From Candidatus Saccharimonadota bacterium (lineage in GTDB: Bacteria; Bacteroidota; Bacteroidia; Flavobacteriales; Blattabacteriaceae), in NCBI RefSeq assembly GCF_000709555.1, contig NZ_CP006873.1, positions 210,001-242,000 on the forward strand: a stretch of 32,000 nt of DNA, given 5' to 3'. Under the pieces are notes generated by a model that was not told the origin of the DNA, ran no database searches, and was given only the letters and a program-made list of their open reading frames with translations. Position 1 is the stretch's first letter. Each line of letters starts with the position of its first letter. Shown piece by piece: positions 1 through 32,000 of this stretch. A program made the translations under genes and the position numbers.

Positions 1-1152
1 GTAGAGAAGGGAAAGGGATATCAAGTAAAAAACATCAATTACTTTGTGCAACTAGCACGAACGAGACCTTGGTCTGCATTGTATATGTCAGCCTTTTATT
101 TTACAAGCATCTCTTTGGGAGCTCTATTCTTTTTAAGTATTCAACATGCTGTCCAAGCTGGATGGCCCATTGTAGTAAGTAGAGTCATGGAAGGAGTTTC
201 TTCATTCTTACCCTTTGGGGGAGTAATTATACTACTTCTTTTAATACTAAATTGTATAGGAGTTATACATATGATACCCTGGATGGATTCTTCTTTCTCA
301 GATCCAAATTCTCCAAATTACGATGAGTTCATTCATAATAAACTACCTTTTTTAAACATTTATTTTTACCTAATAAGAAGTATTCTATATGTAGTGGGCT
401 GGACATTTTTTATGTGTTGTCTTAAATTTATTTCCAAGAAATTAGATTATACACGTAGTGTAAAAGAACATAAGACATTACGTTATGTCTCAGTGGTTTT
501 TATCTTATTTTTTTCCATTAGTTCTATGGTAATGGGTTGGGATTGGATTATGTCTTTAGATCCGTCCTGGTTCAGCACACTTTTTGGATGGTATGTTTTG
601 GGATCTTATTTAGTATCTGGAATTACTGTAATTTCACTAGTAGCGATATTTCTAAATAGTCAAGGTTATCTTCCTTTTTTTAATCATAATCATTTACACG
701 ATTTAGCTAAATATATTTTTGCTACTAGTCTTCTATGGACTTATTTATGGTTTTCACAATTTTTACTCTATTGGTATGGTAATATCCCTGAAGAAGTCAC
801 ATATTTTCTGCATCGTTCAAATCAATATCATTTTATTAACTTTATCATGCTAATTCCCAATTTTTTGTTCCCTCTTTTTGGACTTATCAGTAGTAGATCT
901 AAAAGGAATAAAAAAATCATCGTTATATTAGGATGCATCCTACTGATAGGACATATTATAGACATATATAATATGATTATGCCAGGTAGCGTCGGTGGTT
1001 TTTATGGGTTTGGGATGTCTGAAATCGGTAGTCTACTTTTTGTAGGTGGAGGTTTTTTATTGGTTCTATTACGTGAATTTGGGAAAATGAATTTATCCCC
1101 ACAGGGTAATTTCCTATTCTATGAAAGTGTATTCTATGAATATTCCTTATAA
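1..1152 (+). CDS. actF: Alternative complex III (quinol:cytochrome c oxidoreductase) polytopic membrane subunit, ActF-like ('quinone-binding subunit 2'); 5'-partial at the window edge
   Basis: Frame 1 is open from base 1, with no stop before the GTG at 46, so the gene probably starts upstream of the window. It is a multi-pass membrane protein. Motifs RPWSALY..AGW, GWDWIMSLDPSWFSTLFGWY and LWFSQFLLYWYGNIPEEVTYF match my recollection of flavobacterial ActF. Confidence 0.6.
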   Translation, partial: VEKGKGYQVKNINYFVQLARTRPWSALYMSAFYFTSISLGALFFLSIQHAVQAGWPIVVSRVMEGVSSFLPFGGVIILLLLILNCIGVIHMIPWMDSSFSDPNSPNYDEFIHNKLPFLNIYFYLIRSILYVVGWTFFMCCLKFISKKLDYTRSVKEHKTLRYVSVVFILFFSISSMVMGWDWIMSLDPSWFSTLFGWYVLGSYLVSGITVISLVAIFLNSQGYLPFFNHNHLHDLAKYIFATSLLWTYLWFSQFLLYWYGNIPEEVTYFLHRSNQYHFINFIMLIPNFLFPLFGLISSRSKRNKKIIVILGCILLIGHIIDIYNMIMPGSVGGFYGFGMSEIGSLLFVGGGFLLVLLREFGKMNLSPQGNFLFYESVFYEYSL

Positions 1153-4155: not shown

Positions 4156-5340
4156 CTAAATTTCTATGCTGAATTGTTTTATTTTTCTATAGAGTGTTCG
4201 TTCAGATATCCCCAATTCCTTGGCCACCGTTTTTCTTTTACCCCTATTTCTCTTTAAAGCTTTGCGAATCAACTCTATTTCTTTTTCCTGCAAGGATAGA
4301 GATTTAGAAGCAGTCCGCGGTTCTTTGGATTCATCAATTTCTTCATAATTAGTTTCTAATGAATATTTTTTCCCTGCTGCAGATATTATTTCCTCTTGTG
4401 GATGATCCTGTTTAACACGATGAGCATATTCTGTAGGGCTTCGCATAAGTTTCCATGTGAGAGACTTTAAATCGGTTAAATCCTTACGCATATCATAAAG
4501 CACTTTGTAAAGTAAGTCTCTCTCATTACTCATTTGTCCCGACTCCTGAGAAAGCGTATGTTCAGGAAGATATTCTTTTATGCGTTCAATAGAAACCTCT
4601 CTATCAGACTCTAGAATAGATAGTTGTTCTACAACATTACGCAATTGACGAACATTTCCTGGCCACGGATAATTTTTTACATAACCCATAGCATCACTAC
4701 TTAACTTTATGGTAGGCATTCGGTATTTTTCTGCAAAATACTGTGAAAATTTTTTAAATAATAAACTAATATCTCCTCTACGAGCTCGTAAGGAAGGCAC
4801 ATTAATTTGAACAGTATTGAGTCTATAATAGAGATCTTCTCGGAATCTTCCTTTAGATATCGCCTCAGAAATATTAACATTAGTTGCAGCAATGATCCGT
4901 ACATTTGTTCTCTGTATTATAGAAGATCCTACCTTTAAAAATTCTCCGGATTCTAAAACTCGTAATAGCCGGACTTGCGTGGTAAGAGGTAATTCACCTA
5001 CTTCATCGAGAAATATGGTACCCTTATCGACTACTTCAAAATATCCTTTACGTACACAAGTAGCGCCGGTAAATGACCCCTTTTCATGACCGAAAAGTTC
5101 GCTCTCTATAGTTCCTTCAGGAAGAGCCCCACAATTTACAGCTATATAAGAATGATGCTTTCGCAAGGAAAGTTGATGAATGATCTTCGGAAGAAATTCC
5201 TTTCCTACACCACTTTCACCCATTACTAGGACAGAAATATCCGTGGGAGACACCTGAATTGCCTTTGCTAATGAGCGATTTAGCCCTGGGTCATTTCCGA
5301 TTATTTTGAACCGTTGTTTTATGCTCTGTATGTTTTCCAT
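4156..5340 (-). CDS. Sigma-54-dependent transcriptional activator (AAA+ enhancer-binding protein, Fis-type HTH, no receiver domain)
   Basis: Walker A GESGVGKE, ESELFGHEKGSFTGA (a GAFTGA-type sigma-54 contact loop), Walker B FLDEVGEL, the R-finger region and a C-terminal HTH (ELGISERTLYRKIK) are all present. Confidence 0.85.
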   Translation of the reverse strand: MENIQSIKQRFKIIGNDPGLNRSLAKAIQVSPTDISVLVMGESGVGKEFLPKIIHQLSLRKHHSYIAVNCGALPEGTIESELFGHEKGSFTGATCVRKGYFEVVDKGTIFLDEVGELPLTTQVRLLRVLESGEFLKVGSSIIQRTNVRIIAATNVNISEAISKGRFREDLYYRLNTVQINVPSLRARRGDISLLFKKFSQYFAEKYRMPTIKLSSDAMGYVKNYPWPGNVRQLRNVVEQLSILESDREVSIERIKEYLPEHTLSQESGQMSNERDLLYKVLYDMRKDLTDLKSLTWKLMRSPTEYAHRVKQDHPQEEIISAAGKKYSLETNYEEIDESKEPRTASKSLSLQEKEIELIRKALKRNRGKRKTVAKELGISERTLYRKIKQFSIEI

Positions 5341-10833: not shown

Positions 10834-13461
10834 TTAGTTAAAAATAAAACTCTCCACTAACTTTATCGCTTCATTTAACCCAGTAGAATTGTTACCCTTT
10901 GCCATAGCAAAAAACTTCTTACCTCCCCCTTTCCCTTTGATATATGGGGATAATTTTTGAAGAATTTTACAAGCATTTACCCCATGTTCTACAAGATCAT
11001 CAGAGACAGCTATGCAAAGCAGCACGTTATTTTTTTCAGAACGACCAACAACTGTTATTAGTTCTCTATGTTCCCTACGTAATTCTAATGCTATGGTTTT
11101 CATAGCAGTAGGTTCTAGATTTGTTTTTTCATAGATCAACATAAATCTATCATGTTTTTTAGCTTTTGTTAACCATTCTTTTTTTAATCTCTGTATTTCT
11201 CGTGACGTTACAATATTTATTTTTGTTCGTAACTTTTTTATTTCCTGTTGCAATTGTTGTATCGTTTTAATCGGATCGGAGGGATTATGTATTTGATAAA
11301 TAATTTTATTATAATCATCATATATCTTGTTTTGATATCCAATGGCAGTTTTTTCGGTAATTGCTTCTATACGTCGAATACCTGATCCTACAGAAGATTC
11401 TGATACAATTTTGAATAATCCTATTTCTCCAGTTTTCTTTACATGTGTTCCAAAACACAATTCTAACGAGGGGCCAAAACCAATACTTCGCACTTTATTT
11501 CCGTATTTTTCCCCAAATATTGCTACAGATCCTTCTGAAATTGCTGTTTCAAATGGAATGTTTCTACGTTCTCGTAAAGGATAATCTTTAAATATTATAT
11601 CCTGTACCAACATCTCAATCGACTGCAATTGTTCAATACGTATTTTTTTAGTATGAGAAAAGTCAAAACGCAATCTATCAGGCCCTACATACGATCCTTT
11701 CTGAGAAACATGATACCCTAGGACTTTTTTTAGAGCATAATGTAATAAATGAGTAGCACTATGGTTTTTTTCAATTTTCTTTCTACGATTTTTATCTACT
11801 GAAGCTTTGAAAGGTTTTTGGATATTATCAGGAAGTTTTTCTATCGTATGAAGAAAAAGACCATTCTCTTTATAAGTATTTATGATTCGTATTGTATCAA
11901 ATTCATTTTCCAAATAACCACTGTCTCCTACCTGGCCACCTTCTTCCGGTAAAAAAGGTGTTTTATTTAAAACAATTTGATAATAGGGACCTTTAATCGT
12001 TTGCACACGACGATATTGTTGTATATAAACATGAGCATATAAAATTTCATGACCGATAAATTTGTTTTCTTCTTCTACGAAAGAACTATTGAGAATAGTC
12101 CAATCATCATGCTGAATATTCCCATATTTCCGAGCACGTTCTTTTTGAAGAGACATTTCTTTTTTAAAGCCTATTTCATCTATTTTTAACAAATTGTCTG
12201 CAGCAAATAAACGTGAAATATATATAGGTAAACCGTAAGTATCATATAACTCAAATATTTTATCTCCACTAATCTGGTTTTGTCTTTTTTGTTTAGTTTC
12301 TTCAATAAGATTTCCCATTCTGTTTATGCCATGAGTTATGGTATTAAAAAAAGTGCTTTCTTCTGCTTGGACTTGTTCCTCTATCCACTTTTGTTGACGA
12401 ACAAGTTCAGGAAATATATCTCCCATTTCTTGTACAAGAACTTTCACAAGTTTATACAAAAAAGCTTGATTCTGATGTAAAAATTGATATCCATAACTTA
12501 TGGATCTTCTCAAAAGACGACGAATTACATATCCTGGACCAATATTAGAGGGATTTTGTCCGTCAGCAATAGCAAAAGAAATAGCTCTTATGTGATCTAC
12601 TATCACACGAATAGCTATATCTATTTGAGAATTTTTCCCATAATTAACATTGCTAACCGATTCTATTTTTTTAATTAGAGATCGAAAAAGATCAGTGTCA
12701 AAATTTGAAGATTTGTTTTGCAATACTCTGCAGAGTCTCTCAATACCTAGACCAGTATCTATATGACGATTCTCTAATTTTTCAAGACTTCCATCCGATT
12801 TCCTAAGAAATTCTATAAATACAAGATTCCATAGTTCTATGACATCCGGATGATTTTTATTAACAAGATCCTTACCGGAAACAGACTTTTTTTCTTTTGA
12901 ACTACGTAAATCTATATGAATTTCTGAACAAGGTCCACAAGGACCGATAGATCCCATTTCCCAGAAATTTTCTATTTTACCAAAAGAGATAATGCGATTT
13001 TTGTCAATAAATCTTGACCAAAGAAATCTAGACTCCTCATCAGGAGAAATATCATTTTTATCATCACCAGAAAATATTGTAACATATAAATTTTCACTAG
13101 GGATTTTGTAGACCTCAGTAAGAAGTTCCCAAGACCATTCTATAGTCTCTTTTTTATAATAATCTCCAAAAGACCAATTTCCAAGCATTTCGAACATAGT
13201 ATGATGATGAGTATCATGACCGACATCTTCTAAGTCATTATGTTTTCCTACTACTCGTAAGCATTTTTGCGTATTAGCTATTCTAGAATAATGAGGGATT
13301 CTTTGCGAGAGAAAATAATCTTTGAAAGGATTCATTCCCGCGTTTGTGAACATAAGGCTGGGATCATTTTTTATAACAATGGGAGATGAAGGAAAGATTT
13401 TATGATTTTTTTTTTGGAAAAAATTTAAAAAACTCTGTCGGATTTTACGAGAGGTAAACAT
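10834..13461 (-). CDS. alaS: Alanine--tRNA ligase
   Basis: Class II AlaRS motifs are present (FTNAGMNPFKDYF, HHTMFEMLGNWSFGDY, editing-domain HSATHLL). The start was set at the Met of MFTSRKIRQSFLNFF, because the upstream 23 ORF codons run through the tRNA-Ser gene. Confidence 0.95.
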   Translation of the reverse strand: MFTSRKIRQSFLNFFQKKNHKIFPSSPIVIKNDPSLMFTNAGMNPFKDYFLSQRIPHYSRIANTQKCLRVVGKHNDLEDVGHDTHHHTMFEMLGNWSFGDYYKKETIEWSWELLTEVYKIPSENLYVTIFSGDDKNDISPDEESRFLWSRFIDKNRIISFGKIENFWEMGSIGPCGPCSEIHIDLRSSKEKKSVSGKDLVNKNHPDVIELWNLVFIEFLRKSDGSLEKLENRHIDTGLGIERLCRVLQNKSSNFDTDLFRSLIKKIESVSNVNYGKNSQIDIAIRVIVDHIRAISFAIADGQNPSNIGPGYVIRRLLRRSISYGYQFLHQNQAFLYKLVKVLVQEMGDIFPELVRQQKWIEEQVQAEESTFFNTITHGINRMGNLIEETKQKRQNQISGDKIFELYDTYGLPIYISRLFAADNLLKIDEIGFKKEMSLQKERARKYGNIQHDDWTILNSSFVEEENKFIGHEILYAHVYIQQYRRVQTIKGPYYQIVLNKTPFLPEEGGQVGDSGYLENEFDTIRIINTYKENGLFLHTIEKLPDNIQKPFKASVDKNRRKKIEKNHSATHLLHYALKKVLGYHVSQKGSYVGPDRLRFDFSHTKKIRIEQLQSIEMLVQDIIFKDYPLRERRNIPFETAISEGSVAIFGEKYGNKVRSIGFGPSLELCFGTHVKKTGEIGLFKIVSESSVGSGIRRIEAITEKTAIGYQNKIYDDYNKIIYQIHNPSDPIKTIQQLQQEIKKLRTKINIVTSREIQRLKKEWLTKAKKHDRFMLIYEKTNLEPTAMKTIALELRREHRELITVVGRSEKNNVLLCIAVSDDLVEHGVNACKILQKLSPYIKGKGGGKKFFAMAKGNNSTGLNEAIKLVESFIFN

Positions 13462-13484
13462 CACATAAGTTTTATATAGGATTG

Positions 13485-13571
13485 CGGAGAGAAAGGGATT
13501 CGAACCCTTGACACTGTATTCAGTGAACATACTTTCCAGGAATGTGCCTTAGACCACTCGGCCATCTCTCC
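13485..13571 (-). tRNA. tRNA-Ser (anticodon GGA), type II with long variable arm
   Basis: The reverse complement folds as follows. Acceptor is GGAGAGA/TCTCTCC. Anticodon stem is CATTC/GTATG (one U-U mismatch) with loop CTGGAAA. Variable arm is CACTG-AATA-CAGTG. T arm is AAGGG-TTCGAAT-CCCTT. Discriminator is G. Confidence 0.9.
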
Positions 13572-14556
13572 AAGAATTTTCCAATATGCTGATCCCTAAG
13601 GCTTTTCTAACACGTTGTAATGTGATCGTAGCTATTTGTGAAGCACGTTCAGCTCCCAGAGAAAGAATTTTATTTAAAAGTACTTTTTTTTGTATAAATT
13701 CATTGAATTTTTCTCGTTCGTGTTTAAACCTATGTAATAAAAGTTCATAAAGAGCTTGTTTAGCATTCCTATAACCATAACCTCCTGATAGATAATTTTT
13801 TTCCATTTCAATAATTTGGTATTCAGAAGCAAAAAATTTGTAAAAAGTATAAATTAAATCTGTTTCTGGATTTTTAGACTCCTCTAAGGAAAGATTATTG
13901 GTTCGAATATTCATGATTTGCTGGTATAGTTCTTTTTCTTTAGCAAAAAGATTTATAATATTTCCTTTAGATTTGCTCATTTTGTTTCCGTCAATACCTG
14001 GTATATACATCATATTTTTATTAATCATAGGTTCTGGGACAACAAAGACTTCTCCTATTTTACTATTAAAACGCTTGGCTATATCACGCGTAATCTCCAT
14101 ATGTTGGAGTTGATCTTTCCCCACTAGTATTTTTTCAGCATCGTAGAGCAATATGTCCGCTGCCATAAGCATAGGATAGGTAAATAAGCCAGTGTTAATC
14201 TCTTTAATATAATTTTTTTTTTCCTTAAATGAATGTGCTAATTTAAGTCTATGATAAGGGTAAAAACAACTTAAATACCAAGATAATTCAGTTGTCTGAG
14301 GTACATCGGATTGACGATAAAAAATCGCTCTATCAGCATCAAGCCCGCAAGCAAGCCAAGTAGCCAAAACTTGATAGGTATATTCTTTTAATAACTCAGC
14401 ATTTTTAACAACAGTTAACGAATGTAAATCTGCAATAAATAAAAAGGAAGTATAATCAGAGCTATTTGCCAATTGAATAGCTGGAAAAATAACACTCAAT
14501 AGATTGCCTAAATGAGGAATACCAGTGCTTTGGATCCCCGTTAATATTCTGGACAT
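13549..14556 (-). CDS. trpS: Tryptophan--tRNA ligase
   Basis: This is a class I enzyme, with a HIGH-like PHLGN motif and KMSKS. It is 335 aa. The last 23 nt, including the stop, lie inside the tRNA-Ser gene. Confidence 0.93.
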   Translation of the reverse strand: MSRILTGIQSTGIPHLGNLLSVIFPAIQLANSSDYTSFLFIADLHSLTVVKNAELLKEYTYQVLATWLACGLDADRAIFYRQSDVPQTTELSWYLSCFYPYHRLKLAHSFKEKKNYIKEINTGLFTYPMLMAADILLYDAEKILVGKDQLQHMEITRDIAKRFNSKIGEVFVVPEPMINKNMMYIPGIDGNKMSKSKGNIINLFAKEKELYQQIMNIRTNNLSLEESKNPETDLIYTFYKFFASEYQIIEMEKNYLSGGYGYRNAKQALYELLLHRFKHEREKFNEFIQKKVLLNKILSLGAERASQIATITLQRVRKALGISILENSWRDGRVV

Positions 14557-14559
14557 TTT

Positions 14560-15329
14560 TAATATTTTAACGCTTCTTCCCAGAATTTCTTTAGGAATTC
14601 TGACGTTCTTTATTAGAGTGAAGTATTAACTCACTTTTAATTTTAGAAGCATTTTCTGTGGCTTTATGCATAGCCATCATCCGTGATCAAGCATTGCTTT
14701 AAAAATAGCTATTTTTAGGAATTAAATAGTCTAAAAGAGCTTCTTTTGAAGGCTCCATAAAGTAATTAACCTTTTCATCATTACTAGACTTTATAGAGAT
14801 AGGTAATAGTTTTCGGTTTTAAAACCGACTCCAGAATTTTTATATTCACAATATATACTATATGAATAGAACCTTTAAGAAATTCTTCTATTAAAGAATC
14901 ACAGAATATTTCTACCTGATGGTCATAAATCGTATAAAATAGATTAAAATTATGTTATAGTAATTTTTTTTCCTCTGAAAAGGAATAGAGATTTTATGAG
15001 TAATATCTTTAACGATTGCATCATTGAAACTTCCACAAAGTCCCCTATTAGAACTGATAACAATGATTAATTTTGTATTTACAAAAACCTCTTCTAAATA
15101 AATAGAATTAAAATCTGTATTTGAAAAAGTAGACGTCTTCTATTCCTTAAGAATAAGGATAGAATTGTAATATGGCATCTTTAGCATCTTTAGCATCTTT
15201 AGCATCTTTAGCATCTTTAGCATCTTTAGCATCTTTAGCATCTTTAGTTTTTTTAAGTTTAGCTGCAGTAATCTTCATCATAGAAGAAACTGATTGAATC
15301 CGAAAAAGGATTTATTTTAAACTAGGCAC
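14560..15329 (-). pseudogene. atpG: ATP synthase F1 gamma subunit (atpG) pseudogene
   Basis: Hand translation gives an N-terminal VPSLK*ILFRIQSVSSMMKITAAKLKK (compare LKEIRNRI.SV..T.QIT.AMKMVSAAKLKKAQ) with an in-frame TAA and an internal deletion. The C-terminal MMAMHKATENASKIKSELILHSNKERQNS* is followed by a frame change to IPKEIL. There are many stops in between and no long ORF. Confidence 0.75.
15175..15247. repeat. Perfect tandem repeat, 9-bp unit GCATCTTTA x 8 (minus strand AAAGATGCT = Lys-Asp-Ala)
   Basis: The eight identical units were counted directly, at 15175-15246. The repeat lies inside the atpG pseudogene at the position of the ancestral KLKKAQDA segment. Confidence 0.95.
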
Positions 15330-16298
15330 GTCCTTTAATATATTTCTCTTCATGAGAGACTCTTTCAAGCACTTTAGTAAATTTTGTTACATTATTTGAG
15401 GATATTTGTTATTTAAATAAATATTCTTCCTCAAATTCGTGAACCTTATTAAGAGAGTCAACAGATTTCTGGGACCGAGATATAGTATAGCTATTTTATA
15501 AGGATTATTTATCCGTTGTTTTAGAATTTCCACGTTATGTTTACCTTTATTTCTAATATCCATAGTAACAGGATCAAGATTAGAAACAAACTTTTAAAAG
15601 GCTTCCTTCCTTCCTTCCTTCCAGATCACGGAATTGAGCCTGATCAATTTTAAGAGTTCCAGCTTGCTACTACACGGGATCCAGAAATCCCTTCATTAAT
15701 TGCTGCCCCCAGAATTAAACAAATCAATTTATAAAAATATTTGGCCTAATAGAGATAATATTAGTTGGAATATAAGCGTCTACCTCTTGGGTATCGCTGT
15801 CCCCCCTTGAGACATCGTTAAGATTACGGGCTACTTCATCATGCAGAACGTTACAATAAGCGTAGACAGGATTAGCTTCTCGTCCTGGAGTCTTAAAAGC
15901 AAAGAAATTTCACGGTAAGATCATCGGCCTCACGAAAATATTCTACTACGACCGTCTACATTTTTAATGTGTTGCCACTGGCAACATAAAGACAAAAAAC
16001 TGGTGATCATAACATTCCTTCTGATTAAGAATCGTGGTTTGACCTGTCTGTCGTTGGCCCACGTCTAATAGGAATCATAGCATCAATAGCTATAAGACCT
16101 GTTTGTAGAGAGGCTTACGATAGATTAGGAGGTAAGCTAGGTAAGCTATATGTACGCTACGTTGTATCCTTCTAGGATAACCAGGGTGAGTACAATACCT
16201 TTAAGACCAGTATGAAATTCTACTAATTGTCTACTCCATCACCTATTTTAAGTCCCACACCAAATTCTTTTTTCAAGATGGCTAAGATTTTAGATCTA
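15330..16298 (-). pseudogene. atpA: ATP synthase F1 alpha subunit (atpA) pseudogene, heavily deleted
   Basis: Fragments lie in several frames: ILAILKKEF..GVGLKIGDGV, QLVEFHTGLKGIVLTL, LQTGLIAIDAMIPIRRG, a collapsed Walker A QRQTGQTT (16033-16056; GKT changed to GQT with flanking codons missing), AGTLKIDQAQFRDLE, and FVSNLDPVT...VEILKQ. There are multiple stops. The span is about 0.97 kb, against roughly 1.5 kb expected for an intact atpA. Confidence 0.8.
15602..15622. repeat. Tetranucleotide microsatellite (TTCC)5 (minus strand GGAA)
   Basis: Read directly from the sequence. It sits exactly at the ancestral ...RDLE|AF... junction of atpA and shifts the frame. Confidence 0.9.
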
Positions 16299-16475
16299 TC
16301 ATCTAATTGTAAGAGATTCTAGTAGCTTATAAGCTCTTTACTAAGACTCATATCCGCTCAGAGCACCAATAATAGTAGGATCTACTTTCTTCAAGAGAAA
16401 GTCTTTTGTATTTCCATAACTTCATCCAATATTTAAAGGTATAGCCGTGATGATAGTGGCTTCTCCCCTAAAAAA
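16299..16475 (-). pseudogene. atpH: ATP synthase F1 delta subunit (atpH) remnant, C-terminal third only
   Basis: Translation gives ATIITAIPLNIG*SYGNTKDFLLKKVDPTIIGALSGYES**, which resembles the delta C-terminus (..VDPSIIGG..). The N-terminal two thirds are missing. Confidence 0.5.
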
Positions 16476-16492
16476 TTCATGAGTAATAGATT

Positions 16493-16888
16493 TTAATAAA
16501 GAAATTGTCGTCTTGTTTTTGAAGAATCAAGAATATTTCTCTTTTTTTGTTTTGTTTTGTTTTTTTTTTTTAAACGGTAAAGAAGGCATTTTAAGAAAGG
16601 AATAAAAATACCGATTTTTTTTTTTGCTTCTTCACGGATTTTATCACTCATTATCCGAGCTTCTTTTAATAAAAGATCTCGTTCAATACGACTTTCTTTA
16701 ATCCAATTATCTTTTTCAAGATGAAAAAGACGAATTTCTGAACGTACTTTTTGAGCAGCTTCTAGAGAATTATGCAAATGAGTATCACGTTGTTTAATCA
16801 GATTTAATATGGGTTTCCACGCAAATTTTGTAAGAATGAAAAAGAGATGCCAAAAAATAAAACCTATGGAAGGCGTTACTAAATCCAC
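16493..16888 (-). pseudogene. atpF: ATP synthase Fo subunit b (atpF) pseudogene
   Basis: The first ~90 aa are b-like (TPSIGFIFW...KFAWKPILNLIKQRD...LLKEARIMSDKIREEAKK) but the TM helix is shortened. After a 13-nt homopolymer (about 16612-16624) the reading frame encodes low-complexity K/N-rich junk. No frame continues the b coiled coil. Confidence 0.7.
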
Positions 16889-16930
16889 GATATAATTAAA
16901 TAAATTCTCGGTAACCCTATTTTAATATAC

Positions 16931-17005
16931 CTAAAAGGGCAGTACGAAAAGTGATGCAGGAGCACTTTGGTGTCTGCGACCTGTCTGTCTAAGATTAGCG
17001 TCCAT
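16931..17005 (-). pseudogene. atpE: ATP synthase Fo subunit c (atpE) remnant
   Basis: Only MDANLRQTGRRHQSAPASLFVLPF* remains (compare SAMEAIARQPE...ALFAL). The first TM helix and the loop context are deleted. Confidence 0.55.
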
Positions 17006-17010
17006 AGAAA

Positions 17011-17642
17011 TTAAGATGTTTCATTATCTTTTATACCAATAAGGCAACGAAGTCTTATAAAGATTCCTACAAGTTCTATTGGGATTCGGAAAAAACGAAC
17101 GGAGGCATATGGAAAATATGTTTCCAATAAGATCTTTTGGAGGTTATAATTAGAAAGGTAATCAACGATAAAACTAAGGTGGTATTCCCAGTTACTTTCG
17201 TAGCATCCCAATCAGATTGTAGGAGATAAAAAAATACTGTAGGAAAATACAACTTATACATAGGGTTCCCTATGTTTTGAATAGCTAATTCATCTCTGAG
17301 GAACAAAATTAGTGGTTCTCCTGTAAAGAAATAGGACAAAGAATAAAAACAGAACATAAAGTAGCCACAACATTTTTCGTAATGGAGAGATTCAACGGTT
17401 GCTCATTTAGGTGGACCCATCAGCGTCTTGCACAAGACGATAATATTTTCCATCAGACAACCTTTCTTCCATATTTAAACCGAAAGAAAGACACAAAATT
17501 ATAGGTAAAGGAATACTTAGACTTTTCTCTACCCCAAAAGTGCCATTCAGATGAATCTCGGTTCAAGAATTCTTTCTGGATAAGAAACTACAAAACTATG
17601 AAGCACAAAAAAGAGAGAAAAAATAAAAATACTACTTTTCAC
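17011..17642 (-). pseudogene. atpB: ATP synthase Fo subunit a (atpB) pseudogene
   Basis: From the GTG at 17642 the N-terminus reads VKSSIFIFSLFFVLHSF..., a signal-like sequence, then hits a stop. IHLNGTFGVEKSLSIPLPIIL, VTGNTTLVLSLITFLII and PIELVGIFIRLR lie in different frames. The C-terminal helices are missing. Confidence 0.75.
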
Positions 17643-24327: not shown

Positions 24328-26442
24328 TTACTTCTTCGGCAGAGATTTATCCTCGTATACTTCAATATAGTCTCCTATTTTGAGAGCATTATAGTTCTTT
24401 ATTTGCAATCCGCATTCATAACCTTTAGAGACTTCTTTTACATCTTCTTTAAATCGTTTAAGAGAAGCTAATTCGCCATGAAATATGACAATACCGTCTC
24501 GGATTAATTTGATTTTAGCAGGACGAAATATTTTCCCGTTAATAACCATACATCCAGCAACGGTTCCTACTATTTTAGGAATATTAAAGATATTACGAAT
24601 CTCAGCAGTACCACATATTTGTTCTTGAAGTTTAGGAGAATACATTCCTTCTATAACGTTAGAAATTTCCCTAATTACATCATAAATAATTGAATATGTA
24701 CGTATTTCAATCTGTTCTCTTTCTGCAATTTTTCTGGCATTAGGAGTTGTTCTAACATTGAATCCTATAATGATAGAATGAGAGGCACTGGCTAGTAAAA
24801 CATCTGATTCAGTAATTTGTCCTACACCTTTGTGAATAATATTTACCAATACTTCCTTTTTAGACAGATTTTTTAGTGCATTCATAATAGCTTCTACGGA
24901 ACCGTCTACATCTCCCTTAAGAATAATTTTTATTTCCTTCCCTGCTACGTTAACGTTAGTTAACGTAACATGCTTATGTATGCGAAGATTGTGCTCTCTT
25001 TGTAATTGTTGTTTTTTTAAAGCCAGTTGTTTAGCTTCCTTATCATTACTGAACACTTTAAATTTATCACCAGCTGTAGGACCACCGTTAAGTCCCAATA
25101 TAGATACAGGTTTTGAAGGACCGGCATTTTTAATGGAATTACCTCTTTCATCGAAAAGGGCCTTAACTTTTCCGTGGAAGATCCCTGCTAATATGTAGTC
25201 TCCAAGTTTGATAGTCCCAGATTGAACAAGGATAGTAGTCATATATCCACGACCTTTATCGAGAGTAGATTCAATGATTGTCCCAGAAGCCATTTTATTT
25301 GGATTAGCTTTCAATCCTAAAAGTTCAGCTTCTAGCCAAACCTTATCGAGTAATTGTTCAATACCTTCCCCTGTTTTTGCAGAAATTTCCTGAGACTGAT
25401 ATTGACCTCCCCATTCTTCTACCAAGATATTTATGTTAGCTAGCTGTTCACGTATTTTATCAGGATTTGCCGTAGGTTTATCTATTTTATTTAAAGCAAA
25501 TATTAGAGGAACTCCAGCTACTTTTGCGTGATTTATTGCTTCTTTGGTTTGCGGCATAACTTCCTCATCCGATGCTATAACAATAATAACAATATCAGTT
25601 ATCTTAGTGCCTCGGGCGCGCATTGACGTAAATGCCTCATGACCAGGAGTATCAAGAAAAGTAAGACATCGGCCGTTTTTTAATTCTACACTATAAGCAC
25701 CTATATGCTGTGTAATTCCTCCAGATTCACAAGATTTAGTATTTCTAACATAATCTAAAAATGACGTTTTTCCGTGGTCTACGTGACCCATAACTGTGAT
25801 AATGGGTGCACGACTATGCAGACTTTCTTTTGGATCTTCCTCTTCCTTCATAACTTTATCTATATCTTCTCCGACAAAATCTATACTGTATCCGAATTCA
25901 TCAGCTACTAGGGGAAGTATTTCTGCGTCTAAACGTTGATTCATTGTTACCATAACACCTAAAGACATACAAGTAGTAATTAATTGTGTGCTAGAAACAT
26001 TCATCAGAGAAGCTAATTCATTTACAGTAATAAACTCAACTATTTGAAGTACTTTTTTAGGTTTTGAATCAAGCGTTTTATTATCTTCTTTTGGTGGTTG
26101 TTTTTTTTTCCTATACTTTAAAAGTGTTGATTTCTTATTTTTTACAGGGACTTTTGAAAAAGTTTCCTTAATTTTTTCTACACGTTGTCTCACATTTTCT
26201 ATTCCACTACGCAAAGTACGTTGCTTTTTTTTATCGGATTTATTTTTTTCAAATTGAGACAGATCTATTTGATCTCCTGTAAATACAGGACCTGGAAGTT
26301 TTTTATATTGTGTTTTTATAGAAATGTCTGTTTTTGATTTTGAACCGTCTGTTTTTGATTTTGATTTTGAACCGTCTGTTTTTGATTTTGAACCGTCTGT
26401 TTTTGAAACTGGTATCAGAGAATCACTCTTTATGTGAACCAT
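24328..26442 (-). CDS. infB: Translation initiation factor IF-2, main ORF lacking the N-terminal IF2_N domain
   Basis: G-domain motifs GHVDHGKT, DTPGH and NKID are present, as are the C-terminal domains. The repetitive Lys/Ser-rich N-terminal linker contains TDGSKSK repeats. Confidence 0.93.
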   Translation of the reverse strand: MVHIKSDSLIPVSKTDGSKSKTDGSKSKSKTDGSKSKTDISIKTQYKKLPGPVFTGDQIDLSQFEKNKSDKKKQRTLRSGIENVRQRVEKIKETFSKVPVKNKKSTLLKYRKKKQPPKEDNKTLDSKPKKVLQIVEFITVNELASLMNVSSTQLITTCMSLGVMVTMNQRLDAEILPLVADEFGYSIDFVGEDIDKVMKEEEDPKESLHSRAPIITVMGHVDHGKTSFLDYVRNTKSCESGGITQHIGAYSVELKNGRCLTFLDTPGHEAFTSMRARGTKITDIVIIVIASDEEVMPQTKEAINHAKVAGVPLIFALNKIDKPTANPDKIREQLANINILVEEWGGQYQSQEISAKTGEGIEQLLDKVWLEAELLGLKANPNKMASGTIIESTLDKGRGYMTTILVQSGTIKLGDYILAGIFHGKVKALFDERGNSIKNAGPSKPVSILGLNGGPTAGDKFKVFSNDKEAKQLALKKQQLQREHNLRIHKHVTLTNVNVAGKEIKIILKGDVDGSVEAIMNALKNLSKKEVLVNIIHKGVGQITESDVLLASASHSIIIGFNVRTTPNARKIAEREQIEIRTYSIIYDVIREISNVIEGMYSPKLQEQICGTAEIRNIFNIPKIVGTVAGCMVINGKIFRPAKIKLIRDGIVIFHGELASLKRFKEDVKEVSKGYECGLQIKNYNALKIGDYIEVYEDKSLPKK
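26326..26406. repeat. Tandem 21-nt repeat (GTCTGTTTTTGATTTTGAACC) x about 3.5, one unit carrying an extra GATTTT
   Basis: Read directly. Units lie at 26326-26346, 26347-26373 (27 nt) and 26374-26394, with a partial unit at 26395-26406. The repeat is in frame and encodes (TDGSKSK)n in IF-2. Confidence 0.9.
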
Positions 26443-28282: not shown

Positions 28283-29744
28283 ATGAATAAAGAATTAATT
28301 ATACAAACAAATGAGAAAGAGGTAATTGTTGTTATTTTGGAAAACGTAAAATTATCGGAAATACATCGTTACAGCAAAAAAAAAATTTGTTAATTGGGGA
28401 TATCCACATTGGAGAAATCCAAGAAATAGTCCCGGGACTAAATGCTGCTTTTGTGAATATTGGATCTGGTCAACATGCTTTTCTTCATTATCAAGATATT
28501 GGTCCGAAATTAAAATCATTTATAAAATTATTATCATGTCATTATCCAGAAAATGTAGGTGAATTTATTCAAAATGGACAAATAATATTGGTCCAGATTA
28601 CTAAAGAATCTCTTTCAAAAAAAGGTCCTAAACTTACATCAGAAATTTACCTCTCAGGTCGTTATCTTATATTAATTCCTTTCGCAGAACAAATTTTAAT
28701 TTCAAAAAAAATCAAAGACAGAAAAGAAAGAGAACGATTAATTTCTCTTATACAGAGAATAAAACCAAAAAATTTTGGCCTAATTATTCGGACTATTGCG
28801 ATAAATAAAAGAATTCCAACTATTGAAAATGATTTCCTATCTATAACCAAGAAGTGGAAGAATCTCCTAAAATTTTTAACAAAAAAAAATTGACAGCAAG
28901 AATACTACGGGAAAGGGATAGAGCATTATTCATTCTAAAAGATCTTTTTTATGAGGATTTCACATCCATTATTTGTGATGATGATAATCTCTGCGATGAG
29001 ATGGATACCTATATCTCTAGCATTTATCCTAGTAAAACTGGGATTATTAAATATTATCGTGATAAGGAAATCCCTCTTTTTGATAAATTGGGTATTGAAA
29101 GTCAAATGAAAATCTCTTTAGGCAAGCATGTTACCCTAGGTCAAGGAGCTTATCTAATTATAGAACATACTGAAGCATTGCACGTCATTGACGTGAATAG
29201 TGGAATAAACCAGCATAAACAAATAAAATATAAAAATGTCGCTCTTGATGTAAATATTTTAGCAGCTACAGAAATTTCTAGACAATTAAGGTTAAGGGAT
29301 ATGGGAGGTCTTATCGTGGTAGATTTTATAGATCTGGTGGAATATCATCATCGTCAAAAATTATATGAACACCTAAAGATAGCAATGAAAAATGACAAAG
29401 CAAAATCTAAAATTTTACCCCCTAGCAAATTTGGTCTAATACAACTTACAAGACAAAGAGTACGTACTGAATTAAATATAGAAACTTCTGAAGAAAATCC
29501 TTCTAAAAATATAGAAGCGCCGGTTTCATATATATATATATCTAGAATAGAGTCTGTTTTCGAATTTCTTGTAAAAGAAAACATTAAAAAAATTACTTTG
29601 CATACTCATCCATTTCTAGCAGCTTATCTCCAACATGGATGGCCATCCAAACAGCAAAAATGGTTTCTACGATATAAAAAATGGATCAAAATTATTCAAA
29701 GAGATTCATTCAAATATCTTGAGTATCAAATTTTTTATAAATAA
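28283..29744 (+). pseudogene. rng: Ribonuclease G/E family (rng/cafA) split into three frames by two poly(A) tracts; possibly still expressed via slippage
   Basis: Segment 1 (28283 onward) reads MNKELIIQTNEKEV...HRYSKKK. The A10 tract lies at 28376-28385. Segment 2 (28387-28893) contains the S1 domain (GDIHIGEIQEIVPGLNAAFVNIG). The A9 tract lies at 28881-28889. Segment 3 (to 29744) contains the catalytic motifs HVIDVNSG and GGLIVVDFIDL. Adding one A at each tract gives one continuous ~487-aa RNase G. Confidence 0.85.
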
Positions 29745-30009: not shown

Positions 30010-30858
30010 ATGGAATGTCTTAAAATAGCTTTACAAAAATCCGGTAGACTGTATACAGATTCGATAGAACTACTGAAAGATTGTGGTATAGAAATGAATT
30101 TAGGAAAACAGCTTAATACAAAGTCTCTTAATTTTCCAATGGAGATTTTATTTTTACGAGATGATGATATTCCTAAATACATAGAAGATGGAGTAGCTGA
30201 TGTAGGTATTGTAGGGAAAAATCTTATTTTAGAAAAAAAGAAAAATATTAATATTATAGAATATCTAGGTTTTGGCCGTTGTCGTCTATCTATTGCTGTA
30301 CCTGAAAATTTTCATTATACAAGATTAGACGATCTTGACGAAAAACGAATTGCCACAAGTCATCCTACGCTTTTAAGCGCTTTTTTAAAAAAAAGCCAGA
30401 TCAAAGCGCACATTCATCATATAAGCGGATCGGTAGAAATTGCACCGAATATAGGAATATCTGATGCTGTTTGTGATTTAGTTAGTAGCGGGGAAACACT
30501 GTTTATCAACAATCTTAAAGAGATAGAAACTATCCTGGAATCGGAAGCTGTATTAACATCCTATCCACACATGAAATCGTCTAAAAAATCTATTGCGGAA
30601 ATATTATATTGTAGAATACAGGCAGTTAAAAGAGCTAGAACCAATAAGTATCTGATACTCAATGCTACTAATGATAATTTAGAAGAAATATTATCTTGTC
30701 TCTCTGGAAGTCCTACAGTACTTCCCTTAAATAATACTAAATGGATTGCAGTGCACGCTATAATAGAAGAAAGATATCTATGGAACAAGATAGAAAAACT
30801 TAAAAGATTGGGTGCAAAAGACTTATTGGTTCTCCCCATTAAAAAAATGATGATTTAA
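30010..30858 (+). CDS. hisG: ATP phosphoribosyltransferase, long form
   Basis: From the internal Met the sequence reads MECLKIALQKSGRLYTDSIELLKDCGI, and the DLVSSGETL motif is present. About 283 aa, including the C-terminal regulatory domain. Confidence 0.92.
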   Translation: MECLKIALQKSGRLYTDSIELLKDCGIEMNLGKQLNTKSLNFPMEILFLRDDDIPKYIEDGVADVGIVGKNLILEKKKNINIIEYLGFGRCRLSIAVPENFHYTRLDDLDEKRIATSHPTLLSAFLKKSQIKAHIHHISGSVEIAPNIGISDAVCDLVSSGETLFINNLKEIETILESEAVLTSYPHMKSSKKSIAEILYCRIQAVKRARTNKYLILNATNDNLEEILSCLSGSPTVLPLNNTKWIAVHAIIEERYLWNKIEKLKRLGAKDLLVLPIKKMMI

Positions 30859-30892
30859 AAAAAAATAGGAGGTCCTCAAAATATAAAAACTA

Positions 30893-31978
30893 ATGAAAAA
30901 AAAGTTTCTTTTCATTGAAAGAGAGGGGCCTATAATTATAGAAAATCCTACCCCAGTTATTTTCTATCCAGGAGTATTTTCATTTCTTTCACGTATATTC
31001 TCTGAACTCGATTATGAACTAGTCATAGGGACTAATCAAGAGGGACTAGGGACAGAAAACTTTCCAGAAGAAAAATTTTGGCCAAAACAAGAATATATCA
31101 TGAAAACTTTTGAAGGTGAGGGTATTTATTTTTCTTCTGTACATATTTATCGGACTCTGGCAAAAGAAAACGCATATACCAGAAAATCTTGGACTGATAT
31201 GCTTCTAACTAATTATGATATTTCAAATTCTTTTTTTATAGGGGATATAATTACATATGTTCTCTTAGCTCAAAATCTTGGTTGTAAAGCGATATGGATG
31301 AATAAGGAAAATTGTAAGACGAGTCAAGAACTTAACCCTTTGATCTCTTTTGAAACCGTTTTTTGGAACCAAATTTATGAGTATCTTAAATTCGGACTTC
31401 GATGTAACACGAATAGACGTATCACTAATGAAACCGACATCAAAATTTCCCTGCAACTTGATGGTACTGGAAAAACTAATATCCATACTGGGCTCGGTTT
31501 TTTAAATCATATGCTTGAACAGATCGGTTGTCAGGGAAAATTTGACCTAACTATTAAGGTGCGTGGAGATCTACATATTGATGAACACCATACTATTGAA
31601 GATATTGGTCTCGCTCTTGGCGCTACTTTTACTAAAGCTTTAGGAGATAAGAAAGGAATTGTTAGATATGGATATTCTATATTACCTATGGATGATTCAC
31701 TAGCGAAAGTAGCGATGGATCTGGGAGGTCGAAGTCATTTAGTATGGAAGGTAAATTTTGGCATAGAAAAAATAGGTGATGTCCCTACAGAAATGTTTTC
31801 ACATTTTTTTAAATCTTTTTCTAATACAGCACACTGTAATATTCACATCCAAGCTGAAGGAAAGAACGAACATCATAAAATAGAAGCTATATTTAAAGCC
31901 TTTGCTAGAACACTTCATATGATTATCCGCAGAAATATAAATTACTATGAATTACCTACAACTAAAGGAATGCTATGA
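30893..31978 (+). CDS. hisB: Bifunctional HisB: imidazoleglycerol-phosphate dehydratase (C-domain intact) fused to a histidinol-phosphatase HAD domain whose catalytic motifs are degenerate
   Basis: The C-domain carries the IGPD motifs HIDEHHTIEDIGLALG and GKNEHHKIEAIFKAFARTL. The N-domain aligns to E. coli HisB-N, but FIDRDGT is FIEREGP and GDRATD is GDIITY. The CPH...CDCRKP zinc site is IYRT...AYTRKS. Confidence 0.93.
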   Translation: MKKKFLFIEREGPIIIENPTPVIFYPGVFSFLSRIFSELDYELVIGTNQEGLGTENFPEEKFWPKQEYIMKTFEGEGIYFSSVHIYRTLAKENAYTRKSWTDMLLTNYDISNSFFIGDIITYVLLAQNLGCKAIWMNKENCKTSQELNPLISFETVFWNQIYEYLKFGLRCNTNRRITNETDIKISLQLDGTGKTNIHTGLGFLNHMLEQIGCQGKFDLTIKVRGDLHIDEHHTIEDIGLALGATFTKALGDKKGIVRYGYSILPMDDSLAKVAMDLGGRSHLVWKVNFGIEKIGDVPTEMFSHFFKSFSNTAHCNIHIQAEGKNEHHKIEAIFKAFARTLHMIIRRNINYYELPTTKGML

Positions 31979-32000
31979 AAATTGTTATTGTTAAATATTC
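31975..32000 (+). CDS. hisH: Probable start of imidazole glycerol phosphate synthase glutaminase subunit HisH (3'-truncated by the window edge)
   Basis: ATG at 31975 overlaps the hisB stop (ATGA). MKIVIVKY is a typical HisH N-terminus, and this is the expected gene order after hisB. Only 8 codons are visible. Confidence 0.45.

Follow-up and report, generated by a model that had tools for sequence, protein, structure and literature searches.

Histidine operons of Bacteroidota usually have the gene order hisG-hisD-hisC-hisB-hisH-hisA-hisF-hisIE, and all Bacteroidota have the bifunctional hisNB form of hisB (PMC8305728), whose product joins an N-terminal phosphatase domain of the HAD family (HisB-N) to imidazoleglycerol-phosphate dehydratase (IGPD). 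In HAD phosphatases the first aspartate of motif I is the nucleophile that forms a phospho-aspartate, the second acts as acid/base, and motif IV aspartates hold Mg2+ (PMC9798254, PMC13543951). For HisB-N the roles of the DxD and DxxxD aspartates have been described; in both HisB-N and GmhB a lid loop that takes part in substrate binding closes over the active site (PMC9798254). Either of two substitutions in the HAD phosphatase Nem1, D257E or D259E, abolishes activity, which was put down to strict aspartate geometry (PMC13543951). In Portiera, a symbiont of whiteflies, the last histidine step, histidinol dehydrogenase, is maybe done by the host (bioRxiv 10.1101/043349). The genome-wide absence of hisC and hisD from Walczuchella, together with co-symbionts that keep “some or most” of the missing genes, has been published (PMC12188211, PMC3971599, PMC11064573; main text), and loss of hisCD is recurrent in small-genome Bacteroidota symbionts of scale insects, according to a preprint (bioRxiv 10.1101/2025.10.31.685726). 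Here we analyze hisB of Candidatus Walczuchella monophlebidarum, itself a symbiont of scale insects; the gene lies at the end of a 32,000-nucleotide stretch of contig NZ_CP006873.1 (positions 210,001 to 242,000, forward strand), hereafter referred to as the window. The gene likely encodes a HisNB with a pseudo-phosphatase N-domain whose scaffold is still constrained and with a working IGPD, the pathway probably ending at imidazole-acetol phosphate.

The window HisB is 100% identical to WP_038436235.1/AID37502.1 of Ca. Walczuchella monophlebidarum (309,299-bp contig). Its product name in the NCBI Prokaryotic Genome Annotation Pipeline is “imidazoleglycerol-phosphate dehydratase HisB” only. The gene and its two parts are:

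30893..31978, + strand: hisB (hisNB) coding sequence, 361 amino acids plus stop, an intact single open reading frame (ORF)
30893..31390, + strand: HisB-N domain of the HAD-IIIA type with linker, residues 1–166 (TIGR01261, 2fpr match, AlphaFold2 model)
31391..31975, + strand: IGPD domain, residues 167–361, probably active (PF00475, NF002111, AlphaFold2 model, ratio of nonsynonymous to synonymous change, pN/pS, of 0.19)

A homology search supplied 118 bifunctional HisB proteins of Bacteroidota, to which the window protein was aligned together with E. coli HisB; ten Walczuchella HisB sequences were used for comparison within the clade. The N-domain is still homologous to HisB-N (TIGR01261, E = 2e-23 over residues 4–142; 2fpr, E = 3e-15), as claimed in a preliminary description made from the letters of the window. 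The alignment revealed the following changes in its motifs:

30917..30931, + strand: degenerate HAD motif I, E9-R-E11-G-P13 for D-R-D-G-T (codons GAA AGA GAG GGG CCT)
30947..30952, + strand: junction of an 8-residue deletion just past motif I, where homologues have P-T-Y-Q-[IL]-D-S-F
31031..31045, + strand: motif II region T47-N-Q-E50-G, Thr kept, D50E (alignment to the 118 homologues)
31142..31153, + strand: H-I-Y86-R, D86Y; its column is that of zinc ligand C93 in E. coli, and Bacteroidota carry D-R-T at this place instead of CxH
31181..31189, + strand: motif III R97-K98-S99, Lys kept, P99S (alignment to the 118 homologues)
31241..31258, + strand: degenerate motif IV G-D118-I119-I-T-Y122 for G-D-R-I-T-D (codons ATA for I119 and TAT for Y122)

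All the replaced columns are close to invariant. Aspartate occupies the columns of E9, E11 and Y86 in 118/118 homologues, as do threonine that of P13, proline that of S99 and arginine that of I119, the neighbor of the first motif IV aspartate. The columns of E50 and of Y122, the second motif IV position, hold aspartate in 117/118, and the column of D102 holds glycine in 116/118. The eight deleted residues correspond to alignment columns 49–56, each of which is 97–100% conserved among the homologues; they are missing in all Walczuchella, and by its position the stretch would be the squiggle/flap (lid) loop of the HAD fold. Two more deletions, of about 5 and about 7 residues, are found further along the N-domain and in the linker. 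The EREGP, TNQEG, HIYR, RKS and GD[IL]ITY sequences, like the missing eight residues, are common to all ten Walczuchella proteins, so the inactivation is older than the sampled radiation. An E-x-E motif I was found in none of the 118 close homologues, nor in the best 150 representatives from a library of 1.84 billion proteins. The only other motif I lesion among these 150 was in a 311-amino-acid HisB-like fragment from a GC-rich organism (P0242), which has tyrosine at the nucleophile position (IFIYRDGT) and a scrambled C-terminus and is probably a frameshifted pseudogene or an assembly error. HisB of Uzinura and Brownia, which also lack hisCD, appeared in no listing; the collection scan covered Walczuchella and free-living relatives and was not aimed at those symbionts.

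The preliminary description had read motif I (ExEGP at 30917–30931) and motif IV (GDIITY) exactly, codon coordinates included, and the 97–100% invariance of the replaced columns puts these changes beyond chance. Its statement that the domain has lost its defining catalytic residues likewise holds for the nucleophile aspartate, the acid/base aspartate, the motif I threonine and the second motif IV aspartate. It had also listed the E. coli Cys/His zinc site among the losses. The site is indeed missing relative to E. coli, but this is no loss by the symbiont: the CxH/CxC ligands are missing in all 118 Bacteroidota HisB (D-R-T...A-P-T), where the positions of E. coli C93, H95, C101 and C103 hold Asp, Thr/Ser, Ala and Thr, and we rejected the site as a sign of decay. 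The Bacteroidota branch never had the zinc cap; its absence is a lineage trait, uninformative on the symbiont. The proposed equivalence of I-Y-R to the first half of the site was out of register by one residue; the counterpart of E. coli C93-P94-H95 is Y86-R87-T88. Inside the same stretch D86Y and P99S are symbiont-specific changes at invariant columns.

Considering motif chemistry together with the Asp-to-Glu precedent of Nem1, a different HAD enzyme, the HisB N-domain is very probably catalytically inactive. Nem1 shares the DxDx(T/V) chemistry, and its D257E and D259E proteins still fold and bind their partner while being inactive (PMC13543951). They differ in being laboratory changes in a eukaryotic protein phosphatase, whereas the window protein is a natural, clade-fixed variant with additional lesions in motif IV and past motif I. 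It departs from HisB-N in motif I, motif IV, the stretch past motif I and the curated score (see below). The N-domain fits the definition of a pseudoenzyme, a homolog of an active enzyme without essential catalytic residues. On its sequence the window protein is best described as a HisNB variant, by descent hisNB, with a pseudo-phosphatase for N-domain.

The best solved-structure match of the N-domain is E. coli HisB-N (2FPR/2FPS/2FPU; HAD-IIIA, “DDDD”), over residues 3–140, with homology and the predicted HAD Rossmann-like fold kept in the mapping that the preliminary description had proposed as a check. The two proteins line up at the Thr of motif II, the Lys of motif III and the first Asp of motif IV, while E. 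coli D9, D11, T13 and D134 are replaced by E, E, P and Y. E. coli HisB-N has the CxH/CxC zinc cap, missing here as in all Bacteroidota, and the window protein is also without the eight residues past motif I. An AlphaFold2 model (48-sequence alignment) has a mean predicted local distance difference test score of 87, with low confidence only at residues 87–110. In Foldseek comparisons its N-half gave a template modeling (TM) score of 0.75–0.77 against 2FPR/2FPS and its C-half 0.94–0.96 against IGPD structures. We give the model little weight as evidence of foldability, since the alignment of intact homologues drives it.

A closer comparison is with HisNB of free-living Bacteroidota (P0004 and the Chitinophaga/Niastella proteins), which have the same two domains, with hisG upstream and hisH-A-F-IE downstream, 55–61% identity to the window protein, no E. 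coli-type zinc ligands and an equal IGPD score (252–263 bits versus 252 in the window). They differ in having DRDGT, GDR[I]TD, an intact stretch past motif I, 156–168 bits against the hisB_Nterm model and hisD and hisC in front of the gene, where the window has EREGP, GDIITY, three deletions and 79.5 bits and hisB directly follows hisG. Curated cutoffs are 140 bits for TIGR01261 (hisB_Nterm), 231 for NF002111 (IGPD equivalog) and 443 for NF003937 (bifunctional HisB). Scores against the two domain models were:

Outgroup P0004: TIGR01261 155.9, NF002111 252.0
Chitinophaga P0013: TIGR01261 167.6, NF002111 263.0
Window: TIGR01261 79.5 (79.5–82.6), NF002111 252.4
Walczuchella P0002: TIGR01261 64.9, NF002111 249.1
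Walczuchella P0128: TIGR01261 45.6, NF002111 248.2

The whole window protein matches NF003937 end to end with 405.2 bits, below the cutoff (P0004, 491.5; P0013, 533.5). Of the columns with 97% or more conservation among the 118 homologues, 17 of 67 in the N-domain and 10 of 97 in the C-domain are changed or deleted (Fisher P = 0.017).

The dehydratase half matches PF00475 with 205.2 bits over residues 199–341 (cutoff 27); no HAD Pfam family was above threshold in the window HisB. Residues of this half were mapped from Arabidopsis IGPD2 numbering, with residue roles taken from PMC4509728 and PMC5828572:

31580..31603, + strand: IGPD motif D-E-H232-H233-T-I-E236-D, Mn ligands, equivalents of Arabidopsis His73, His74 and Glu77
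31865..31885, + strand: IGPD motif N-E-H327-H328-K-I-E331, equivalents of Arabidopsis His169, His170 and Glu173
31532..31534, + strand: Q214, at the position of phosphate-site His55 of Arabidopsis IGPD2; His in 114/118 homologues

Conservation of DEHHTIED and NEHHKIE, reported before, was borne out by the sequence and by the ten-sequence alignment. The eight Mn(II) ligands and the catalytic glutamate (E180, H206, H232, H233, E236, H304, H327, H328 and E331) are invariant in 10/10 Walczuchella, and four of the five phosphate-site residues are kept (Q210, R258, R280 and K335, equivalents of Arabidopsis Gln51, Arg99, Arg121 and Lys177). The claim that this domain is intact therefore stands for the metal ligands and the catalytic residue but not for the domain as a whole, in which ten near-invariant columns are changed, H214Q and R291I among the changes. 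Q214 is common to the closest Walczuchella strains, while Icerya-type strains keep His. R291I (31763–31765), at a near-invariant IGPD position, is found in this strain only; it may reflect true erosion, unless the 2014 assembly has a sequencing error here. Compared with monofunctional IGPD, the form found in most bacteria and in plants and fungi (for example Arabidopsis IGPD2, 4MU0), the C-half of the predicted model superimposes with a TM score of 0.94–0.96 and a root mean square deviation of about 1 Angstrom, and equivalents of E21, H47, H73, H74, E77, H145, H169, H170, E173, R99, R121 and K177 are kept. The differences are the 166-residue dead HAD domain at the N-terminus and, in this strain, Gln at the His55 position. 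The window protein probably behaves functionally as a monofunctional IGPD, which is also how the NCBI pipeline names it.

The setting of the gene agrees with a pathway that lacks more than the phosphatase. The elements adjoining hisB are:

30010..30858, + strand: hisG, ATP phosphoribosyltransferase, long form, 282 amino acids from ATG (PF01634 and PF08029)
30859..30892, + strand: hisG-hisB spacer, 34 nt, the position of hisD and hisC in the nearest outgroup and in the usual Bacteroidota operon
31975..32000, + strand: start of hisH (MKIVIVKY...), cut by the window end (read from the sequence)

The TGA of hisB overlaps the hisH start as ATGA. The direct adjacency of hisG and hisB noted in the preliminary description was found again, with no hisC or hisD in the 34-nt spacer. 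The same nusA-rng-hisG-hisB-hisH-hisA-hisF-hisIE arrangement, with a hisG-hisB spacer of 34–35 nt, is common to six other Walczuchella genomes or contigs (L001, L003, L006, L086, L087 and L088, which include CP170563, CP170565, CP170566 and OZ034981, the Icerya purchasi symbiont), so that hisD and hisC are absent between hisG and hisB in seven genomes in total, at the level of the locus. A tblastn search for hisD or hisC remnants in the window and the six other loci, with outgroup HisD and HisC as queries, yielded noise only (E > 3). The nearest non-Walczuchella homologue with genomic context (P0004; locus L004, a 38-kb contig with 39% GC) is 60% identical and lies in a hisG-hisD-hisC-hisB-hisH-hisA-hisF-hisIE operon, with DRDGT and GDRITD intact. 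The remaining six his genes are intact ORFs in the genomes examined; the count refers to five complete operons, hisIE of L086 being cut by the contig end and the window holding only hisG and hisB.

Substitutions in the clade have an unusual spectrum. Of 201 changes inferred at four-fold degenerate sites (ten genes, seven Walczuchella genomes), 160 were A<->C or G<->T and only 16 were transitions. In whole-locus alignments, intergenic DNA included, this class makes up 67–90% of substitutions (275/315 for L001 versus L087). Polarized singletons comprised 63 A:T>C:G changes, 34 G:C>T:A changes and 16 transitions; on the terminal branch of the window strain the skew is weaker. The spectrum is of the 8-oxoguanine type and resembles a mutT-like and a mutY/mutM-like deficiency combined. 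The main text of PMC12188211 makes no mention of transversions, mutT, mutY or 8-oxo; the bias could bear on the observation that GC content does not track genome size in these symbionts.

Seven of the nine replacements at invariant N-domain sites are single steps of this kind: GAC>GAA for D9E, GAT>GAG for D11E and D50E, ACN>CCT for T13P, GAT>TAT for D86Y and D122Y, and AGR>ATA for R119I. The outgroup L004 has GAC, GAT and ACC at the D, D and T sites of motif I, versus GAA, GAG and CCT in the window. The Asp-to-Glu changes were rejected as a sign of selection for an acidic residue, GAY>GAR being one step of the dominant mutation class of the clade.

Selection on the two halves was measured on codon alignments of the seven genomes, with changes counted by parsimony on the tree. 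In ascending order pN/pS was 0.14 for hisG, 0.19 for the hisB C-domain (about 20 nonsynonymous and 29 synonymous changes), 0.23 for aroG-pheA, 0.29 for hisF, 0.32 for hisA, 0.37 for the hisB N-domain (35 nonsynonymous and 24 synonymous changes; binomial P = 3e-4 versus neutrality), 0.37 for nusA, 0.39 for hisH, 0.42 for infB and 0.59 for hisIE. The last value, the highest among complete genes measured (L001, L003, L006, L087 and L088), comes from few sites and is not significantly below 1; hisI also had the highest omega among tested Walczuchella genes in a published analysis (PMC12188211). Corrected for the neutral expectation under the mutation spectrum, the values became 0.30 (P = 1.5e-5) for the N-domain and 0.16 for the C-domain. 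Per site, nonsynonymous changes have accumulated 2.1-fold faster in the N-domain than in the C-domain (P = 0.006). Comparison of the two domains, proposed earlier as a check, suggested an N-domain less constrained than the C-domain and put its pN/pS significantly below neutrality. The implied picture of a decaying domain is incomplete, since purifying selection persists in the dead domain.

Divergence and indels were examined in the same way. Measured against free-living homologues, the N-domain of Walczuchella has diverged 1.15 times as much as the C-domain in protein sequence; four reference homologues compared in this manner gave 1.12–1.45, and the mean for free-living pairs is 1.43. Six or seven indel events have occurred in the N-domain, all multiples of three: three older deletions and, within the clade, one extra codon and two 12-nt deletions, of NFPE and, in one strain, of NAYT beside motif III. 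None was found within the clade in the C-domain. The chance of a 166-codon open frame at this base composition is about 3e-6. Start-like codons ahead of the IGPD core are M136 and L150 only. The N-domain is under relaxed but real constraint: chemistry gone, loops trimmed in frame, scaffold protected.

The following sequence of events would account for these results. Clean deletion would have removed hisD and hisC from an ancestral hisG-D-C-NB-H-A-F-IE operon, presumably as the earliest event. No histidinol phosphate would then have been made in the cell, and selection on phosphatase chemistry would have ended. Under the strongly transversion-biased spectrum, Glu, Tyr, Pro and Ile would have taken the places of catalytic Asp, Thr and Arg, and the stretch of eight residues past motif I would have been deleted. 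The domain would persist as the translated N-terminus of the IGPD polypeptide, where only in-frame changes survive; it cannot be dropped or frameshifted, because it is part of the same polypeptide and a misfolded or frameshifted N-terminus would destroy IGPD. Selection on the scaffold would most likely be for foldability and solubility of the fusion protein. The symbiont pathway would run from phosphoribosyl pyrophosphate to imidazole-acetol phosphate, with transamination, dephosphorylation and two oxidations carried out by co-symbiont or host.

Purifying selection on the remaining his genes (hisG 0.14, IGPD half 0.19) makes a pathway still running to imidazole-acetol phosphate the natural reading. 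The low pN/pS of the IGPD half speaks for a continued need of the dehydratase step, which is hard to square with an operon kept only for its by-product 5-aminoimidazole-4-carboxamide ribonucleotide, or with a remnant. Several observations weigh against the account given above. T47 of motif II (with N48 and Q49), K98 of motif III (with R97) and D118, the first Asp of motif IV, are retained in all ten Walczuchella, so that some phosphate binding may remain. H214Q affects a phosphate-binding position of the IGPD half itself. The hisB_Nterm score drops among strains from 79.5 through 65 to 46 bits via further in-frame deletions, which looks like slow decay and not stable maintenance. The pN/pS of the N-domain rests on 59 substitutions counted by parsimony, and the contrast between the domains in nonsynonymous and synonymous counts is marginal (Fisher P = 0.08).

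The falling score is what would be expected if the N-domain had no selected role and were kept only since frameshifts and stops kill IGPD, on its way to an in-frame deletion. The further in-frame changes within the clade (NFPE, the extra K codon and NAYT next to motif III), the 2.1-fold higher nonsynonymous rate and the poorly defined region at residues 87–110 of the AlphaFold2 model fit such a relic as well. We nevertheless hold this to be unlikely: pN/pS of 0.37 (0.30 corrected) is significantly below 1 and not above that of nusA, infB or hisH, avoidance of stop codons alone is unable to depress the ratio so far, and the divergence ratio of 1.15 is not raised relative to the 1.12–1.45 of reference homologues. 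The same persistence of purifying selection past catalytic death, the 10/10 conservation of phosphate-contacting T47 and K98 as well as D118, and a scaffold that diverges no faster than in free-living relatives would suit a domain that has been put to new use, for instance as a binder of a phosphorylated histidine intermediate, as a regulator or scaffold of the IGPD 24-mer, or as an aid in the hand-off to a partner. This appears quite unlikely, as any ligand or partner is purely conjectural, the putative flap, an element that contributes to substrate binding in HAD enzymes, is deleted, and indels are still arising in conserved loops; the simple need of a fused domain not to misfold predicts the same selection signal. 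A broader version, in which the dead HAD domain is a selected pseudoenzyme that IGPD needs for folding or assembly, or that binds a phosphorylated histidine intermediate, in a symbiosis exporting imidazole-acetol phosphate, seems to us doubtful though conceivable. If it were true, imidazole-acetol phosphate would cross the symbiont envelope and the partner would do the last four reactions.

It is extremely improbable that the N-domain is still a phosphatase, with Glu9 and Glu11 standing in for aspartates or with another substrate, and that the step is not missing at all. Acidic character is kept at both motif I positions and in D50E, T47, K98 and D118 of motifs II, III and IV are kept, and purifying selection persists. 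Yet each of the equivalent substitutions abolished Nem1 activity, T13P, D122Y, R119I, D86Y and the eight missing residues affect further invariant positions, and E-x-E occurs in none of the 118 homologues or 150 representatives; the Asp-to-Glu changes, as one-step products of the lineage spectrum, need no selective explanation, and without HisC the substrate cannot be made in the cell. That the whole his operon is decaying, with histidine supplied fully by a co-symbiont and the dead N-domain as the first visible lesion, is also very unlikely. Such decay would agree with the pN/pS of hisIE (0.59, few sites) and the high omega of hisI (PMC12188211), with the 10–27% of pseudogenes in Walczuchella genomes, with H214Q and R291I in the IGPD of this strain and with the frameshifted rng beside the operon. 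However, none of the six his genes that are left has a broken ORF in the genomes examined, every IGPD metal ligand is kept, and no pN/pS measured is lower than those of hisG and the IGPD half, which also lie below nusA and infB; on these lowest values we rejected decay of the operon as the principal explanation.

Other features of the window were noted. The rng gene (RNase G; 28387–29744, + strand) is represented by two overlapping ORFs, 28387–28893 and 28854–29744, which match different parts of PF10150, indicating a frameshift; it is also split in L003 and L086, and is an intact 460-amino-acid ORF in L001, L087 and L088. An intact 898-amino-acid ORF for alanyl-tRNA synthetase is found at 10834–13530 on the − strand (tRNA-synt_2c, E = 4e-179; tRNA_SAD; DHHA1), contrary to the text of the genome paper, which calls alanine tRNA synthetase missing. 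Within a region of interest at 14556–17357, about 2 kb (14556–16493) contain no ORF of at least 90 amino acids, and a short ATP-synthase-B-like ORF (16493–16888, − strand) and an unassigned 93-amino-acid ORF (17076–17357, − strand) adjoin this gap; the region may be an eroded ATP synthase operon. The infB gene (24328–26442, − strand) encodes 704 amino acids here versus 756 and 798 elsewhere (617–633 as called on Logan and ENA contigs), with N-terminal differences. A sigma-54-dependent activator (Sigma54_activat and HTH_8; 4156–5340, − strand) is kept in this 309-kb genome. A 368-amino-acid ORF at 46–1152 (+ strand) had no match in a Pfam search.

Taken as an incomplete histidine pathway, the Walczuchella locus resembles cases from other sap-feeder symbioses such as Portiera, a symbiont with a tiny genome that has retained most of the steps, the rest being assigned to a partner by proposal. 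Unlike in Portiera, the pathway would break off at a phosphorylated keto intermediate, three enzymes earlier, and one activity would be lost by inactivation of a domain and not by loss of a gene. The three-step gap with hand-off to a partner, suggested in the preliminary description, gains from the loss of the phosphatase residues and the absence of hisCD at the locus, but the absence of hisCD and its complementation were already published, and split pathways and domain decay in symbionts are known. What is new is that the third missing activity would be hidden in a retained gene, that the gap would thereby be contiguous, and that a dead domain is under measurable purifying selection. The main texts of PMC3971599, PMC12188211 and PMC11064573 do not contain the word “hisB”, and no mention of the state of the HisB N-domain was found in the available part of bioRxiv 10.1101/2025.10.31.685726.

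In reconstructions of Walczuchella metabolism hisB counts among the genes present, and the gap is confined to hisC and hisD. A dead HisB-N makes the gap contiguous, from aminotransferase through phosphatase to dehydrogenase, and histidine synthesis in the bacterium probably stops at a precursor whose completion falls to a partner. The predicted hand-off moves to one metabolite, imidazole-acetol phosphate, which becomes a target for metabolomics and for searches of co-symbiont and host. Tables of gene presence overstate pathway completeness when one domain of a fusion enzyme is inactivated. The gene would also be a natural case of domain-level pseudogenization, in which frame and scaffold are protected by an essential downstream domain, and it offers a way to tell selection for chemistry from selection for foldability. 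None of this alters the established general view of scale-insect symbioses, in which amino-acid synthesis is a patchwork.

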